DNA of 64,000 bases from a virus (Duplodnaviria > Caudoviricetes), in the IMG/VR virus record IMGVR_UViG_3300010348_001841. The stretch is one strand, 5' to 3'. This document shows positions 3,670-61,373 of the stretch, piece after piece; the stretch's first letter is position 1; every line of letters begins with the position of its first letter. The position numbers and the translations under genes are program-made. Under the pieces are notes generated by a model. It worked only from the letters and a program-made list of their open reading frames with translations, was not told where the DNA came from and ran no database searches.

Positions 3670-4116
3670 ATTTTTCCGTTGTTGCCACCACAATTTTATA
3701 GCCTGTGATGTTTTTTGTCTATGCTCCACAGACTTTGGCTTGTCCTTGTTCCCAGAACCATGTTTATTTCCGGATTTGCCCCTTGCATTCATTTTGCAAG
3801 CCTGTTCATATCCATATTTTTCAACAGTCCTCTGCCAGACCGAACTGCCGTGTCCCTGATCTAATCGATTTTCCTTTGCTGTACCCCAATATAAATGATT
3901 AGGATTGCTACATTTTTCGTTATTACAAGCATGGCATATATGTATCTTATGCCCTGTCGGGATTGTGGTATCCAACAGGTGTGCCATCAATCCTTTACAA
4001 TAAGAAGATAAACCACCCTTTTGTGGTCCGCCCCGTTCTATACAGGGTTCGTGCAACCTAAGATGGCGCTGCCTATCTTCTTTCGGTAAGGTTATATATT
4101 CTTCAATCAGATGCAT
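3655..4116 (-). CDS. HNH (Zn-binding loop) homing endonuclease
   Basis: HICHACNNEKCSNPNHLYWGTAKEN motif; NUMOD-like C-terminus; stop lies inside tRNA-Leu. Confidence 0.8.
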   Translation of the reverse strand: MHLIEEYITLPKEDRQRHLRLHEPCIERGGPQKGGLSSYCKGLMAHLLDTTIPTGHKIHICHACNNEKCSNPNHLYWGTAKENRLDQGHGSSVWQRTVEKYGYEQACKMNARGKSGNKHGSGNKDKPKSVEHRQKTSQAIKLWWQQRKNGQVA

Positions 4117-4593
4117 GCTTTATTTATGCTAAACATAAAGAAAACACAAACTTTTATGTTTACTGTTTATGCAAGTTGTCAAAAAGTGCTTCTGTCTTTT
4201 GACGTGCCTGAAAACTCACATTTACAATTTCAACGCTTCCATCTACTTCTTCAAACATAACCAAGTCATCTCTCAACCAAGGCACGGGACCTTCAAAAAA
4301 AGACTCGGGAATATGTATGAAATCTACTTCACTAAGCTTGTATAAAGCCTTTTCGTTAGGATTTTCCATTCTTTCCTCTTAGTTTATCTTCAAGATAATC
4401 AAGGTGAGTATATTCCTTTATTACCTTACCGGGACGCATTATTTCAAGCTTTACAAAACTTTCAATTGAAGCCTCGGCTGCAAATAATGTCTTCTCTTTA
4501 GCAAGAGTGTTCCAGAGAATCCATCCCTTCTGCTGAATTAGATAAGGATAATCAGCATCATCACTGATTCTAATTCTATATCTAAATTTAATT

Positions 4594-4986
4594 TTATCTT
4601 TTGAGAACATTTGTTGGCTTTCCAGTGCTTCTTGCATAACGAATAGTCGTCCAGGTGCCACTACGAATAATCTCATTATCTGATTTAGGAGCACCGATAA
4701 GAAACTCGGTGTTATCGACAATCTTTTTATCCCTGGGCAGATAGGCCTCGGGTTCCTTATGCTCGTCTCCCTTTTTGAATGCTTGTCGGTACGAAGATTT
4801 CGGAGGATATACAACAATCTTCACTGCAGGAAAAAACATTCTTACGATGTCATGGGCCTCTGCGTCGGCACCTTCGCAATCACCATGATGGAATTCTGTT
4901 GGATTTAGATCAAGCATCAGAACAACAAATTGCTCTTTCTGATGCTGACTCATTCCTTCTCTAGTTCCGGTAAATCCAATTTTCAT
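4594..4986 (-). CDS. SLOG/DprA-like nucleotide-binding protein
   Basis: IGFTGTR, HHGDCEGAD, RSGTWTTIRYA motifs. Confidence 0.65.
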   Translation of the reverse strand: MKIGFTGTREGMSQHQKEQFVVLMLDLNPTEFHHGDCEGADAEAHDIVRMFFPAVKIVVYPPKSSYRQAFKKGDEHKEPEAYLPRDKKIVDNTEFLIGAPKSDNEIIRSGTWTTIRYARSTGKPTNVLKR

Positions 4987-6602: not shown

Positions 6603-6611
6603 AATAAAAAG

Positions 6612-6678
6612 ATGGATCACGGGTTCGAACCGTGTTCAGCATTGTAAAGAGGCTATGTTACCAAATACACCAATCCGT
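6612..6678 (-). pseudogene. degenerate tRNA-like element (loop CTTTACA; TTA or TAC reading ambiguous)
   Basis: Good D arm and T arm CACGG-TTCGAAC-CCGTG; only about 4-bp acceptor; no CCA. Confidence 0.5.
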
Positions 6679-6679
6679 G

Positions 6680-6755
6680 TGGCGCCTGGTGCAGGATTCG
6701 AACCCGCGACGCAAGGTGTTAGGGACCCCCGCTCTAACCGCTGAGCTAACCAGGC
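6680..6755 (-). tRNA. amber-anticodon tRNA (CTA), putative suppressor
   Basis: 76-nt cloverleaf; acceptor GCCTGGT/ACCAGGC, G73, CCA; anticodon loop CCCTAAC (C33). Confidence 0.8.
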
Positions 6756-9829: not shown

Positions 9830-10171
9830 CTACGATGGCCGGTAATGTCGAATTGCATCAGCATATGTTTTATTTTTATAGTGTTCTTTAAGAGCTTCAT
9901 CCATTGATTTATCTCCCTTTAATCGATTACTGTACCAATTTAGCGGTTGAAGATTAGAGGGATCATCTGTACCCGCTGAAGAAACAGGAACAATATGATC
10001 AACTTCCCAGCCATGATTATGGTTGTGATTTCCATATTGTCTATAGTCCATAATTCTTCCGAATGGATCAATTTTAATTGAAGATGTCACCTTTCCTTCG
10101 ACTATGATACTTTCACTTAATAATCCATTTGCATTGCCGGACGACAACCAAACTTCTTTATAATTAAACAT
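9830..10171 (-). CDS. HNH endonuclease
   Basis: GWEVDHIVPVSSAGTDDPSNLQPLNWYSNRLKGD. Confidence 0.85.
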   Translation of the reverse strand: MFNYKEVWLSSGNANGLLSESIIVEGKVTSSIKIDPFGRIMDYRQYGNHNHNHGWEVDHIVPVSSAGTDDPSNLQPLNWYSNRLKGDKSMDEALKEHYKNKTYADAIRHYRPS

Positions 10172-10392: not shown

Positions 10393-10890
10393 ATGATTGG
10401 ATTTATTTACGTTTGGAAAGATAAATTAAGAAACATGTATTATGTGGGATCTCATATCGGAACACCCGATGATGGATATATATCATCTTCTCGTTGGTTA
10501 AATTTTGAATATCAATATCGTCCTCAGGATTTTAGGCGCAGAATTATAAAAGAAGTCGATATAGAAAACTTAAAAATAGAAGAATATCAATTTATCTGTA
10601 TGATTAAACCACACGAATTTGGCAAGAAATACTATAACTTAAAAATTGGTGCACCGAAAGGTACAACACCTTGGAACAAAGGAACACAAGGTATTTTCTC
10701 CGAAGAGCATCGCAAGAAAATATCTCAAAGTAAGATAGGTCACGCGGCGTGGAATAAAGGAACACCAAATCCGTTAGGTGCCAAGAATGGCAGGAAGGGT
10801 GCTAAAAAACTTTCAGAAACTGCTAAGGGAAGAAAACGATTCTATAAAGAAGATGGTTCATGGACCTGGCAATATCCGGAAAACAAATAA
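10393..10890 (+). CDS. GIY-YIG homing endonuclease (Seg-like) with NUMOD repeats
   Basis: GFIYVW..YYVGSH..DDGYISSS; WNKG repeats; GATAAATA upstream. Confidence 0.8.
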   Translation: MIGFIYVWKDKLRNMYYVGSHIGTPDDGYISSSRWLNFEYQYRPQDFRRRIIKEVDIENLKIEEYQFICMIKPHEFGKKYYNLKIGAPKGTTPWNKGTQGIFSEEHRKKISQSKIGHAAWNKGTPNPLGAKNGRKGAKKLSETAKGRKRFYKEDGSWTWQYPENK

Positions 10891-10893
10891 GAA

Positions 10894-10909
10894 GGGGCCC
10901 GAAGGCCCC
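10894..10909. terminator. hairpin terminator ending tmRNA and Seg-like transcripts
   Basis: GGGGCC-CGAA-GGCCCC. Confidence 0.7.
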
Positions 10910-10910
10910 C

Positions 10911-11250
10911 TGATTATTGGGTAAGAAGGTAATCAACCCCCGGTGGTTTACGCGGCTAGCGCAACCTCACCATAGAATGCATCATTTGCATTTAGTTTGT
11001 TTTCGTGAGTTACGGTCATTGCCACCGTGTCGCGTCCCTCATCTCAGCAACCCAATCGAAACCTGGTCGGCCCCATCAGAAGTAGACATCCTGCGTTTTA
11101 GGGGTAATACAAGAATTGTGACTTCGACGTTTGCAACCGCCAAGGCATCAAATTGTATGCAGGTAGAACCATTCTTATCTACTTTTGGTGGAGCCGGCGG
11201 GAATCGAACCCGCGTCTTGAACCCATCAATTTAGTCCGAATTACGACAAT
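10911..11250 (-). ncRNA. ssrA: circularly permuted two-piece tmRNA; tag ANDAFYGEVALAA
   Basis: Acceptor piece (T arm, GGCTCCACCA, ends 11186) precedes coding piece starting GGGGCCGA at 11074; G3:U70; tag ORF 10989-10948. Confidence 0.9.
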
Positions 11251-11265
11251 AAAAACATTGTACGG

Positions 11266-11784
11266 TTATTTACCGCCCTTGTCAATAATGGGTGCATCCC
11301 TGCGAGGCATCTCTTCAAAACATATTGTTCCTATCTTTATATGGAACTTTAGTTTTTCGTATCCACGCTGAATGTACACATCAACATAACCATTTATCAC
11401 TTCTTCTCCGGGATTTAGAAGTTGGTCACCCACTCTGATACCAGCCTTATAGGCCGGATATTGTTCTGGCGCCCTATATACCGCATTTACCGGACCATAA
11501 TATAAAACACCTATTCCCCGATATGTCGAAGCTTTATCTTTACAGGGAATAATCTCTTCAGAGATCTCCGATGGCATTGTTAATCCAATTTCGGATTTTG
11601 GTACAGTTATGGTGTCACGAGATACCTTAGGGTCAGATAATAACTGTACCTCTACTGTATTTTCTTCTAAATTACTAACTGTTTCTCTTTTATGTAGAAC
11701 TGGTGGTAGAAATAAATAGAGAAACAGGAACAGATGAAGCAGAAAGCTTGCAACTATTCCTGTTAATTTTTCTTTGCGCGGCAT
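11266..11784 (-). CDS. membrane-anchored protein with PDZ-like domain
   Basis: N-terminal TM helix; YRGIGV and PAYKAGIRVGD. Confidence 0.6.
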   Translation of the reverse strand: MPRKEKLTGIVASFLLHLFLFLYLFLPPVLHKRETVSNLEENTVEVQLLSDPKVSRDTITVPKSEIGLTMPSEISEEIIPCKDKASTYRGIGVLYYGPVNAVYRAPEQYPAYKAGIRVGDQLLNPGEEVINGYVDVYIQRGYEKLKFHIKIGTICFEEMPRRDAPIIDKGGK

Positions 11785-11794
11785 CAGCTATTTA

Positions 11795-12472
11795 TTACCA
11801 GAGTAGGTCAAAGTAACCACGCATAACCTTTGATACGGTTGAAGTTTTATCACTATTGTGATCTTTAACGGTATCGTCTTGGAAGCGATATGTTCTAATC
11901 TTATCGCCTCTCATTCCCGAACCAACCTGTTGCTTACGCTCAGCCGATAATGATTGATTTTTTTCTCGTCTGTCATTTTGTTGAAGAAGTTGAATCATTG
12001 TCGATTTTGCTTCCTCAAGACTTGTTTGGCGTGAACGATTTTGTGAAGTAGTTACAAGGCCTGTTTCTATATGAATGACTCTACAAGAATTTTGATGTTT
12101 ATTCCTGTGTTGGCCACCAGCGCCTGTGCCACTAAACCATTCTATACGAAAATCTTTATCAGTATAATCTCTCTTCTGTATAGATGGATCAATTACCGCA
12201 ACGGTAACTGTACTTGTATGGACTCTTCCACGTTTTTCAGTAGGTGGAATTCGCTGAATTCTATGCCCACCTGCTTCATTTTGTAACTGTGTTAAATTTT
12301 CCCCGACTATTTCGATATGCAATTCGCCGGGCATGTCTCTAATCACACGATTGAGTCATCCTACGCGATCAAAATGTCGTTGATATGCTTGTGCAAGATC
12401 TTTCACGAAGAGCTTGCTATCTTCTCCGCCCTCAGCGGATCTAATTTCAACTATCCTGCGTTGAGTTGTCAT
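11795..12472 (-). CDS. prfA: RF1-like peptide chain release factor lacking domain 1, with in-frame UGA at codon 39
   Basis: [21 protein letters not shown] (PxT), KIRTY; upstream in-frame segment [31 protein letters not shown] with GAGGA RBS. Confidence 0.85.
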
Positions 12473-13130
12473 TTTTATTTTTCCTCTGTTGTGCTAATCG
12501 TCTCGCCTCAGACCAAGTCTTCCCTTTAGAAGCTTCGGATTTGGCTTTCTTTTGTTCCTCGGTCCATTTTCTGCCGGGTTTTCCTTTATTTGGAGATGGT
12601 TTTCCTTTATTTGGATGTTCTTTGCCTTTCCAATAACCTTCCTTTCCCAGCATATGTCCAATCTTGCCTACATTTTTACCAATCATAGCAGTAGATCTCT
12701 TTGCAATAGTTTCGGCCGATTGTTTTATTCCTTTTTTTGCAATAGAAATTTTCTCTATAATTTCTTCAGAATAGATATTTGTTTTTCCTTTGTTCCAGGG
12801 CACCTGAACTCCAGTTTTACCCTTATTCCACGGTGTTTGACCTATGTGTCCGGAAGCCCCGTCTCCACCATCTGTTCTATTATGAAGTATACCAGTACCC
12901 AGGTCCTTACGACCATACCACCTAATCATCCTTCTTTCTAAAGCAAATGCACCAATTTCTGTAAGATTTGTTTCAAGAAAAACTACATTTGATTTATCTT
13001 TAGGCACAGGAACATTATTGTGGTACTCATATGCCCTTCCTTTTTTGCCCTTCCCGATATAATAGGGAGTTCCTGCATCAGCAGTCGGTGAATTTGTGTT
13101 TCGAACATATGCATAAACATAATACATCAA
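12447..13130 (-). CDS. GIY-YIG-like homing endonuclease with NUMOD3 repeats
   Basis: [27 protein letters not shown] repeats; 3' end overlaps RF start. Confidence 0.8.
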
Positions 13131-23129: not shown

Positions 23130-23204
23130 TGGCGGGCCATCAAGGATTCGAACCCTGACCGACAGTTTTGGAGACTGGTATGCTGCCAATTACACTAATG
23201 ACCC
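23130..23204 (-). tRNA. tRNA-Trp(CCA)
   Basis: Loop CTCCAAA, G73, CCA. Confidence 0.9.
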
Positions 23205-28542: not shown

Positions 28543-28629
28543 TGGCAGGCCCTGGTGGGATCGAACCACCGAAACCAGACTGGTACCTGTTTTGGAGACA
28601 GGCGGGTTTGTCCGCTTCCCTAAAGACCT
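28543..28629 (-). tRNA. CCA-anticodon (Trp) tRNA on a Tyr-like long-V-arm body
   Basis: Loop CTCCAAA, D region GGGAAGCGGACAAACCC, V-arm, G73. Confidence 0.75.
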
Positions 28630-28634
28630 ATAAA

Positions 28635-28721
28635 TGGTGGACCCTGATAGATTTGAACTATCGAAACCTGTGGTGCCGGATGTACATGCCCGGTGGGTTT
28701 GCCCGCTTCCCTAAGGGATCC
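28635..28721 (-). tRNA. Tyr-like tRNA with 8-nt anticodon loop
   Basis: Loop CATGTACA; paralog of 28543-28629; A73, CCA. Confidence 0.6.
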
Positions 28722-60200: not shown

Positions 60201-61373
60201 TCAGTAAAATTTCAAGGTGGTCGAGTCGATACCAACCTTCGACAAGTAATCCGCTGCGTTACCGAACGAATTAGCTGTGTTGGTTAGCTCTAGATAGCCG
60301 TAACGTGTCATGAACGAAACGACTGGCTCGAATGTTTGTGGATCCATAACAGGACCAACGCTCATCAATGGGATGTATGGGCAGTAGTAAGCTGCGGCGT
60401 CAGTTTCTGTAGGTCCCTTGTATCCGATAAGAACTGGATCTGCATCGCTTGCGTATTGGTTAACATAAACACGCATTGTGCTGTTCAATGTACCAACAAA
60501 CTTTGTGTTTGTAGGTGCTTCGAATGTACCTTCTGTTGTACGTGCGAACGAAGATGTTGTTGCAGACTGAAGAATTGTCAACGCTGTTGGCGAAACAACT
60601 GCCCAGTTAGCAGCACCACGACGTGTACGTGCAGCGATAAGGTTAGCTTGCTGGTTGATCATAACTGCTAGAGCAGCCATTTCGTCACCAACGTATGTAG
60701 CTGTACCAGAAACCGCAGCTTGGTTGAATGTTGTCGGAGCAACAGGAACCAACGAACCAAGCTTGAATAGCATTTCTTGGTCGATTTCAACTGTAATTTC
60801 TTGTGCAAGAGCTTGCATGATTTCTGCTTCGATGTCGATACCGTGGATTGCGTTAGCATCTTGAGCAGCTTCGAAAGTCCAGCGAGCTGACAACTTACGT
60901 GTCTTAGCTTCAACTGTTTCCTTCAAAATTTGGATGCTCAACTTGTTACCTGGAACGCCTTCCATACGTGCTGTTGATGCTGCACCTGGGTCAGCAACAA
61001 CTTCGTTACCCGAATATGCCTTAGCAATTTCGAATGGACCAAGTGCTTCTGTACCAGCTGTTACACCAGCGGCTGTGTTAGCGTAGCGAACACGTAGAGT
61101 GTGGATCTGTCCTACTGGACCTGTAATAGGCTGAACACCCATGATTTCGTTAGCGATAACTGTAGGCATAACACGACGGATTAGGGGTAGCATTACCTTG
61201 TTTAGAACTGCAATGTTACCAGCTTGTGTTGCACCTGCTGTTGCCGATTCAGCCAAGTAACGACGTGTATTTTCAAATACAACGTCCATCGACTGACGAC
61301 GTGTGCCTGATAGGCCTTCTAGAAGGGCTTCTTTTGTTGCGCCCCAGTTTGATTCAAATAGCTTAGTTGCCAT
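60201..61373 (-). CDS. gp23: major capsid protein, T4 gp23-like
   Basis: RRVMPTVIANEIMGVQP, VEAKTRKLSARWT, YYCPYIPL, FMTRYG. Confidence 0.95.
   Translation of the reverse strand: MATKLFESNWGATKEALLEGLSGTRRQSMDVVFENTRRYLAESATAGATQAGNIAVLNKVMLPLIRRVMPTVIANEIMGVQPITGPVGQIHTLRVRYANTAAGVTAGTEALGPFEIAKAYSGNEVVADPGAASTARMEGVPGNKLSIQILKETVEAKTRKLSARWTFEAAQDANAIHGIDIEAEIMQALAQEITVEIDQEMLFKLGSLVPVAPTTFNQAAVSGTATYVGDEMAALAVMINQQANLIAARTRRGAANWAVVSPTALTILQSATTSSFARTTEGTFEAPTNTKFVGTLNSTMRVYVNQYASDADPVLIGYKGPTETDAAAYYCPYIPLMSVGPVMDPQTFEPVVSFMTRYGYLELTNTANSFGNAADYLSKVGIDSTTLKFY

Follow-up and report, generated by a model that had tools for sequence, protein, structure and literature searches.

A conserved in-frame UGA in the genes of short RF1-type phage release factors and its probable bypass by programmed readthrough

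In this study we analysed a 64,000-nucleotide stretch of DNA from a tailed phage (IMG/VR record IMGVR_UViG_3300010348_001841; hereafter the window) that carries the gene of a short release factor (RF) interrupted by a single in-frame UGA. The UGA takes the place of a conserved tryptophan codon of RF1. It is conserved through the clade of related phage genes and is confined to this one site; the codons after it appear constrained, and U is never the +4 base. In the wider family of short phage release factors, despite deep divergence and shifts in the mechanism of bypass, one place has retained a stop that must be bypassed. We think it probable, with real room for doubt, that synthesis of this RF1-type factor, which lacks domain 1, is gated by programmed readthrough of the UGA as tryptophan at codon 39.

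Results

Organisation of the gene

A minus-strand ATG (12472-12470) opens a frame of 225 codons that ends in a TAA (11797-11795), and direct reading of the letters finds just one break in it, a TGA at codon 39 in the context GTA GGA TGA CTC (Table 1). The codon before the TGA is GGA and the frame after it is unchanged; the window gene has no +1 shift. In the ORF track the gene had started at a GTG (12346), with a product of 183 aa. The first-pass annotation had proposed that the same frame runs upstream across one TGA to an ATG with a GAGGA ribosome-binding site, and the direct reading bears this out. Termination at codon 39 leaves a peptide of 38 amino acids as the sole product.

Homing-endonuclease ORFs of the HNH and GIY-YIG types dot the region of the tRNA, release factor and tmRNA genes. 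They lie at 9830-10171 on the minus strand, at 10393-10890 on the plus strand and at 12447-13130 on the minus strand.

Table 1. Coordinates of the release factor gene, its parts and the neighbouring features in the window
Feature	Position	Strand	Description
Whole recoded gene	11795..12472	-	225 sense codons and TAA; short RF1-type class-I release factor, predicted to hold domains 2-4 only
Shine-Dalgarno-like GAGGA	12482..12486	-	9 nt 5' of the ATG; direct read
Codons 1-38	12359..12472	-	First strand and long helix of domain 2 (equivalent of RF1 alpha-5)
In-frame TGA, codon 39	12356..12358	-	Recoding site, at the conserved Trp of RF1
Five codons 3' of the TGA	12341..12355	-	CTC AAT CGT GTG ATT in the window; family consensus ACU ACC CGC CUG
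Codons 40-225 and TAA	11795..12355	-	Remainder of domain 2/4, then domain 3
PPT, codons 76-78	12239-12247	-	In the domain 2/4 part
GGQ, codons 119-121	12110-12118	-	In domain 3
Upstream ORF	12447-13130	-	GIY-YIG-type homing endonuclease; ends in TGA, 26-nt overlap with the start of the release factor gene
Permuted (two-piece) tmRNA	10888..11299	-	Betaproteobacterial type, 119 bits, tag peptide ANDAFYGEVALAA; about 500 nt 3' of the release factor gene
Phage tRNA-Trp(CCA)	23130..23204	-	Unpaired C27/U43, leaving a 4-bp anticodon stem; U11:A24 pair

A short factor derived from RF1

Read with tryptophan at the TGA, the 225-aa product matches the PCRF family (PF03462) over residues 6-91 (E 2e-22) and the RF-1 family (PF00472) over residues 104-205 (E 2e-18). 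Since the PCRF match includes codon 39, the homology is continuous over the stop. When the product is aligned with proteins of the PDB, RF1 chains reach 3e-41 and RF2 chains 1e-19. Residue 39 aligns with the tryptophan of Thermotoga RF1 (in 'AERKGW'), and the decoding stretch aligns with HRVQRVPVTESGGRIHTST of the same protein. The family matches and the position of this tryptophan agree with the original observation that the product fits RF1 across the stop.

Among the NCBIfam models, that of the RF1 equivalog gives the product 180 bits, that of RF2 gives 106 and that of PrfH 52. The residues of RF1 specificity all align, namely Q, P-x-T, G-R-(I/V)-H-T-S and the GG(D/E)(E/D) helix tip, and the GGQ motif (residues 119-121) is invariant across the family. 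The middle residue of P-x-T is an unusual proline. The first-pass annotation had taken the PxT motif as a mark of RF1-type specificity; at the level of sequence, the PPT at residues 76-78, the higher RF1 score and the aligned decoding residues speak for the same assignment.

The match to the RF1 model starts at about position 106 of 347 and its score lies under the equivalog cut-off of 400, so we describe the protein as a short factor derived from RF1 and not as a prfA equivalog. It has neither the full RF1 length of ~360 aa nor domain 1, the helical domain that interacts with RF3 and the L11 stalk; that this domain is missing had already been noticed, and the late start of the RF1 model matches confirms it. 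No close long form of the short factor was found; what lies upstream is the ORF of a homing endonuclease. The AF2 model of the product (pLDDT 83.8) has ribosome-bound RF1 as its top fold match (TMq 0.86) and places codon 39 at the turn that joins a long helix (17-37) to a strand (40-47). The factor thus appears to be RF1-type and built of domains 2-4, and its codon specificity is predicted from these likenesses.

Conservation of the internal TGA

A scan of IMG/VR with an alignment of the family found 226 relatives, and 80 loci were kept. Codon 39 is TGA in 80/80 sequences of this viral-contig scan (79 loci with the anchor motif and the window), and inspection gave TGA at codon 39 also in L060, the kept locus beyond the 79 that bear the motif. 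Scanning of metagenome contigs with one database protein that has W at this position returned 80 loci, and codon 39 is TGA in 80/80 of these as well. Whether the TGA is conserved in homologues had been named at the outset as a check on the proposal, and it is present throughout both sets, which excludes chance. A 41-nt pattern taken from the window gene, searched as an exact string, gave no hit in IMG/VR. The relatives with TGA show 57-83% protein identity, and their flanking codons differ, with GGC, GGT or GGA before the TGA and ACT, GCT, ATT, AAG or CTC after it.

Elsewhere in the 80 release factor genes tryptophan is encoded by TGG in all 171 cases and there are no further in-frame stops; the final stops of the kept genes are TAA in 73, TGA in four and TAG in three. 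Invariant residues on both sides of the TGA use between two and six different codons across the relatives. As the amino acids are conserved though the codons vary, codons 1-38 are translated in this frame. Both halves of the gene are under purifying selection at the protein level. A TGA that is conserved among diverged homologues, with coding constraint on either side, is what would be expected of programmed stop-codon readthrough.

The homologues in protein databases come in two forms. Many are ~222 aa long with W at codon 39, and others are 179-183 aa long and start after the TGA. Because all 80 metagenome loci have TGA, the forms with W are most likely gene calls made under code 4, apparently on short contigs.

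Sequence context of the stop

Synonymous diversity, scaled to the family-wide codon diversity of each amino acid, has its minimum for the whole gene at codons 40-43 (0.36, against ~0.85-0.95 elsewhere), a trough that is inflated by amino acids that also vary there between subclades. After the stop, threonine is encoded by ACT (27/27), alanine by GCT (15/16), lysine by AAG (7/7) and leucine always by CTN, and the arginine three codons on from the stop uses CGC, CGT or CGA and never AGR; these counts, like those of the +4 base, come from related sequences and are not phylogenetically independent. The +4 base in 73 unique gate sequences is A in 49, G in 16, C in eight and U in none, whereas U follows 32 of the 108 true TGA terminators of ORFs of at least 200 aa in the same loci (Fisher 9e-9). 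The window gene itself has the UGA-C that the first-pass annotation pointed to as a leaky context, but the family prefers UGA-A and C is in the minority. It is the avoidance of U that is conserved.

We found no conserved RNA structure around the TGA; RNAalifold with 47 sequences, from -30 to +80, gave zero consensus pairs. The fold z-scores of single sequences (-0.96, +0.71, -1.09, -1.38, +0.51 and -3.36) are unremarkable save for that of L036. In view of the missing conserved stimulatory structure, the efficiency of readthrough may be just a few percent. In the lineage of L036, and in this lineage only, a hairpin (L036:6106-6174; -27.5 kcal/mol, z -3.4) begins about 16 nt past the UGA.

The wider family of short phage release factors

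Of 178 unique short phage release factors, 133 have TGA at the tryptophan codon. Another 16 contain TGAs at different codons, and 28 require a +1 frameshift. The frameshift cassette resembles that of prfB and lies at the codon equivalent to G38-W39, as for example in CGG AGG GGT CTT TGA G, which has the form GGAGG-N3-CUU-UGA. This clade was gathered with an alignment as query; a single protein of the frameshift clade retrieved itself alone. The 28 frameshift sites are CTT TGA in 22, CTT TAG in four, TTT TAG in one and CTT TAA in one. Cassettes of the TAG and TAA types, with GGAGGGGT CTT TAG, TTT TAG or CTT TAA, are found in L097 and L098 (both at 4007-4667) and also in L237, L244, L275 and L254. 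The identity of the stop at the frameshift site (UGA, UAG or UAA) changes with no matching change in the PxT/PPT region. By score the frameshift factors are RF1 as well, and the RF1 model exceeds the RF2 model by at least 50 bits in all three clades. Since sister lineages have an SD-N3-CUU-stop +1 frameshift at the same position, the property under selection would seem to be the bypassing of a stop and not the mechanism by which it is bypassed.

A maximum-likelihood tree unites the short phage release factors in a single clade (support 100), distinct from cellular RF1, and within it the group with TGA at the tryptophan codon is monophyletic (support 99). The frameshift forms and the forms with TGA at other codons are interleaved, which implies at least 2-3 switches of type. 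The short factors of phages with genomes of 600-735 kb show 32-38% identity to the window factor and carry one or two TGAs at other codons, and the neighbours of their release factor genes are intact genes in the standard code. One short phage release factor was seen with neither an internal stop nor a frameshift (L083:2974-3681; LR756511.1, a phage of 595 kb). It was not captured by the motif filter, and it offers a natural control for the effect of the gate. The genomes of the family measure ~100-735 kb and come mostly from freshwater metagenomes. This is a large and environmentally widespread family of RF1-type phage factors that is recoded in essentially every member.

Transfer RNAs, tmRNA and the decoding of UGA

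The window belongs to a huge myovirus, and its structural genes include those of the tail sheath, baseplate, fibres and major head protein. Its 41 tRNA genes are all encoded on the minus strand, as is a permuted tmRNA whose type suggests a betaproteobacterial host. A tmRNA likewise lies 3' of the release factor gene in the seven closest relatives, overlapping the end of that gene or separated by a few nucleotides in L002, L005 and L009 and at a distance of ~0.4-1.4 kb in L001, L003, L010 and L012.

A tRNA(UCA) was found neither in the window, with its 41 tRNAs, nor among ~600 tRNAs in 60 related loci. The simplest route of UGA decoding would be through near-cognate tRNA-Trp(CCA), which would insert the very residue that RF1 has there. 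The tRNA-Trp(CCA) of the window is a candidate enhancer of this decoding. Its U11:A24 pair, which is the state of the Hirsh suppressor and also a common tRNA state, is uninformative here. The short anticodon stem has a counterpart in experiments with E. coli, where a tRNA-Trp with a 4-bp anticodon stem raised UGA readthrough ~2.5-fold (PMC13092985). The 27:43 mismatch is present in 8 of 18 unique phage tRNA-Trp(CCA) genes in the loci, compared with 85 of 644 other tRNAs, and three of the eight mismatched genes sit directly 5' of the release factor gene.

We also looked at five complete genomes that bear the release factor. Each has one release factor gene and no phage RF2, so that termination at UGA rests on the host RF2. 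None of the six tRNA-Trp(CCA) in the fetched tRNA-array stretches of these genomes has the 4-bp stem; all are paired at 27:43. A Trp-like tRNA(UCA) with unpaired C27/A43 (L121:1501-1577) was found in one relative, G003 (523,836 bp, the record of L018). The genome of G003 otherwise uses the standard code, with a 1529-aa ORF that has 13 TGG and no TGA, and the UGA of the release factor gene is the only evident target of this tRNA. A dedicated phage decoder of UGA, as a general rule, is weakened by the absence of the stem in the five complete relatives, with a tRNA(UCA) in one relative.

Several other tRNA genes of the window are unusual. Two adjacent suppressor-type tRNAs lie at 6609-6755 on the minus strand, a tRNA(CUA) at 6683-6755 (Rfam, 55 bits) and a tRNA(UUA) at 6609-6680 (ARAGORN only). 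The tRNA(CUA) is also present in four of the five complete relatives and in L001, L002, L005 and L012, mostly with an unpaired or G-U 27:43. An amber suppressor tRNA beside an RF1-type factor is a paradox, in a genome that uses the standard code and in which TAG gene ends are rare. Two neighbouring genes of 87 nt lie at 28543-28721, again on the minus strand. One is a tRNA whose anticodon is CCA and whose long variable arm is odd for a tRNA-Trp (Rfam, 45.8 bits); the other is tRNA-like, and ARAGORN assigns it a four-base anticodon (tgta).

Discussion

Proposed mechanism and competing explanations

Under the readthrough that we favour, a Trp-tRNA would compete at the UGA of codon 39 with host RF2. 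Its CCA anticodon is near-cognate and would form a C-A pair at the third base. RF2 is taken as the terminator because the phage factor, by its sequence, should read UAA and UAG. When RF2 wins, the 38-aa peptide would be released as a dead end. When the tRNA wins, tryptophan would be placed where RF1 needs it and the full factor of 225 aa would be made. Output would then track the ratio between decoding and termination at this UGA, and the gate would report the activity of RF2 relative to Trp-tRNA, much as the first-pass annotation had suggested with its sensor of host RF2 status. The phage's own tRNA-Trp, with the 4-bp stem in the window, or the Trp-like tRNA(UCA) in one relative, may lift this ratio as infection proceeds. 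The purpose would be to hold the factor low and to tie its level to the termination capacity of the cell, as the prfB frameshift does for RF2. A prfB-like homeostat is incomplete in its logic, since an RF1-type factor cannot feed back on UGA, unless RF2 status is itself the input. The gate could be a termination-capacity homeostat, a timing device or a means of attenuating a harmful protein. A strict sensor of RF2 accounts less well for the swaps of the stop without a change of motif than would an omnipotent factor or a kinetic sensor that does not depend on the factor.

A different explanation, also named in the first-pass annotation and in our view unlikely, is true autoregulation. Here the short factor itself would read UGA, with a shifted or omnipotent specificity, and would exert direct negative feedback as in prfB. 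Two recoded release factor genes are known, prfB (PMC12421855) and Mimivirus R726 (PMC3521657), and in both the recoding is autoregulatory. UGA is by far the commonest internal stop of the family, the middle proline of PxT is unusual and domain 1 is absent, all of which would suit an altered specificity. The explanation gains some weight from the close frameshift relatives, which swap UGA, UAG and UAA with no change in the PPT region, as expected if all three are read. It is opposed by the alignment of every RF1 specificity residue and by the margin of at least 50 bits by which RF1 models beat RF2 models in three clades. Under the tripeptide rule associated with Ito, Uno and Nakamura (2000), moreover, a proline in the first position is said to exclude G at the second codon base, and with P first this rule argues against the reading of UGA. 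The particular case of an omnipotent (or at least UGA-reading) bacterial-type class-I factor, with the internal stop as an autoregulatory site that it reads itself, strikes us as quite improbable. If it were true, one protein of 225 aa would replace both host factors and would need neither domain 1 nor RF3.

We also give a low probability to a simple attenuator, that is, a leaky stop that senses nothing and only holds the yield of a possibly toxic factor down to a few percent of what its mRNA could give. UGA would then have been chosen as the leakiest of the stops. Overexpression of a release factor does lower fitness in B. subtilis (PMC12421855), and both the lack of a conserved stimulatory structure and the flexible identity of the stop among the frameshift relatives are in keeping with such a device. 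For attenuation, however, a weak ribosome-binding site would suffice, yet a good GAGGA is present. The bypassed stop is moreover strictly kept across switches between readthrough and frameshift, which suggests that stop recognition itself is selected.

It is very improbable that code 4 (TGA as Trp) is the code of the phage or of its late phase and that the gene is merely written in it. RF1 genes are found in the TGA-recoded Jade phages (bioRxiv 10.1101/2021.08.26.457843), the relative G003 has its Trp-like tRNA(UCA) and database gene callers gave many homologues W at codon 39. But TGA terminates genes here, among them the major head gene (60201-61373; phrog_138, E 9e-93) and a 1018-aa gene. 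The 49 ORFs of at least 150 aa in the window end in TAA (35), TGA (11) or TAG (3), and those of at least 200 aa in the 80 loci and the window end in TAA (189), TGA (108, or 34%) or TAG (24). Each of the 80 release factor genes has a single TGA tryptophan codon against the 171 others that are TGG, no other genes of the window are joined by reading TGA, TAG or TAA, and a tRNA(UCA) is absent from the window and the 60 loci. The long ORF of G003, with its 13 TGG, likewise has no TGA. Under the standard code, long ORFs are tightly packed at 30-64 kb of the window. A comparison of ORF length and coding density between codes did not discriminate, and it is uninformative because dropping any stop codon raises coverage. 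The genome uses the standard code, with UGA as an ordinary terminator. Genome-wide reassignment of TGA to tryptophan can be set aside, with TGA ending genes, no scattered TGA and no tRNA(UCA) in the window. The first-pass annotation had argued that the recoding would be gene-specific, and this holds on three counts, the TGA at the end of the major head gene, the TGG at all 171 other tryptophan codons and the lack of any other joined gene.

Least probable of all are three further readings. A pseudogene or an error of sequencing would take no more than one transition, from TGG to TGA, but the TGA in all 160 fetched loci and the selection on both halves exclude this. A factor in two pieces, with restart after termination, has the 183-aa product of the ORF track in its favour. 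But in-frame starts within 15 codons 3' of the TGA occur in just 13/73 sequences and at no fixed place, so that restart is not the design, and the 183-aa piece lacks the helix by which the stop codon's first base is read. Against selenocysteine, no conserved SECIS-capable hairpin follows the TGA, and cellular RF1 has tryptophan there. TGG in the homologues and relaxed selection had been put forward at the start as signs of a simple pseudogene, and both came out against one.

Relation to known systems

Our full-text literature search found no published description of a family of short recoded phage release factors. A survey of prfB in more than 12,000 bacterial genomes, published in 2025, found no programmed recoding in prfA; its 8,164 prfB frameshift motifs have TGA (98.6%) or TAA and never TAG, and phage factors are left untreated (PMC12421855). 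A paper on huge phages lists RF1 and RF2 genes and is silent on internal stops (PMC7162821).

The gene described here resembles prfB as a class-I release factor gene with an early in-frame UGA that has to be bypassed and an output set by stop recognition. The comparison with prfB that was drawn at the outset was apt, as sister clades carry a prfB-like +1 cassette at the equivalent codon. There are also clear differences. The bacterial gene encodes RF2 and shifts by +1 at an SD-like element, 3-nt spacer and CUU UGA C, whereas the window gene encodes an RF1-type factor and stays in the same frame, as in readthrough. The prfB site is codon 26, in domain 1; the window site is codon 39, in domain 2 of a protein that lacks domain 1, and this different location indicates that it arose independently. 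In prfB the internal stop is the factor's own codon, whereas the UGA of the window would, judging by sequence, not be cognate for an RF1-type factor. Finally, prfB never shows TAG, whereas the frameshift relatives of the window factor also use UAG.

[quoted passage not shown] 2012, PMC3521657). This too is a viral release factor that depends on recoding of internal stops, and the Mimivirus gene is the sole recoded one in its genome. But it is of the eRF1/aRF1 type, belongs to a virus of eukaryotes and requires two events, whereas the window has a bacterial RF1-type factor, in a tailed phage, with one UGA.

Programmed UGA readthrough by tRNA-Trp is known from the A1 protein of Q-beta, and UGA is decoded as tryptophan at a low level in B. 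subtilis and E. coli. The window gene shares with such cases an in-frame UGA in the standard code and presumably a contest between near-cognate tRNA-Trp(CCA) and RF2. Readthrough of the Q-beta type adds a C-terminal extension to a functional protein, whereas the window factor would need readthrough for any functional product, and the inserted tryptophan, unlike such an extension, would be the residue that the fold needs.

Two further comparisons concern phage release factors and short release factors in general. RF1 of the Jade phages belongs to a 'code-change module' (Borges et al., bioRxiv 10.1101/2021.08.26.457843) that is described as keeping to the standard code, and these phages, like the one in the window, have RF1 alongside suppressor tRNAs. 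They differ in that they recode TGA genome-wide in late genes, whereas the window genome uses the standard code and has the TGA inside the release factor gene only. The window protein also resembles PrfH (RF-H, which is paired with RtcB) in its composition of domains 2-4, without domain 1, PrfH being of ~200 aa. The PrfH model, however, gives it 52 bits against 180 for RF1, and it keeps the PxT decoding motif.

Implications

Recoding of release factor genes was known before from bacterial RF2 and from one eRF1-like gene of giant viruses. What is new here is a family of RF1-type phage factors that is recoded, as we interpret it, by UGA readthrough, by UGAs at other codons or by a prfB-like +1 frameshift. 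This repeated solution within one family suggests that the coupling of a release factor to stop recognition answers a general need of design. Sequence databases misdescribe the family, since gene callers either truncate its members (179-183 aa) or silently apply code 4 (222 aa with W). Our results are of relevance to the fields of translation and of phage biology. The family offers a test bed for the reason why release factors are regulated in this way and for the question whether a factor without domain 1 works alone. It also offers one for the ways in which termination in infected cells is reshaped by phages that bring along tRNA arrays, a tmRNA and amber-suppressor tRNAs.
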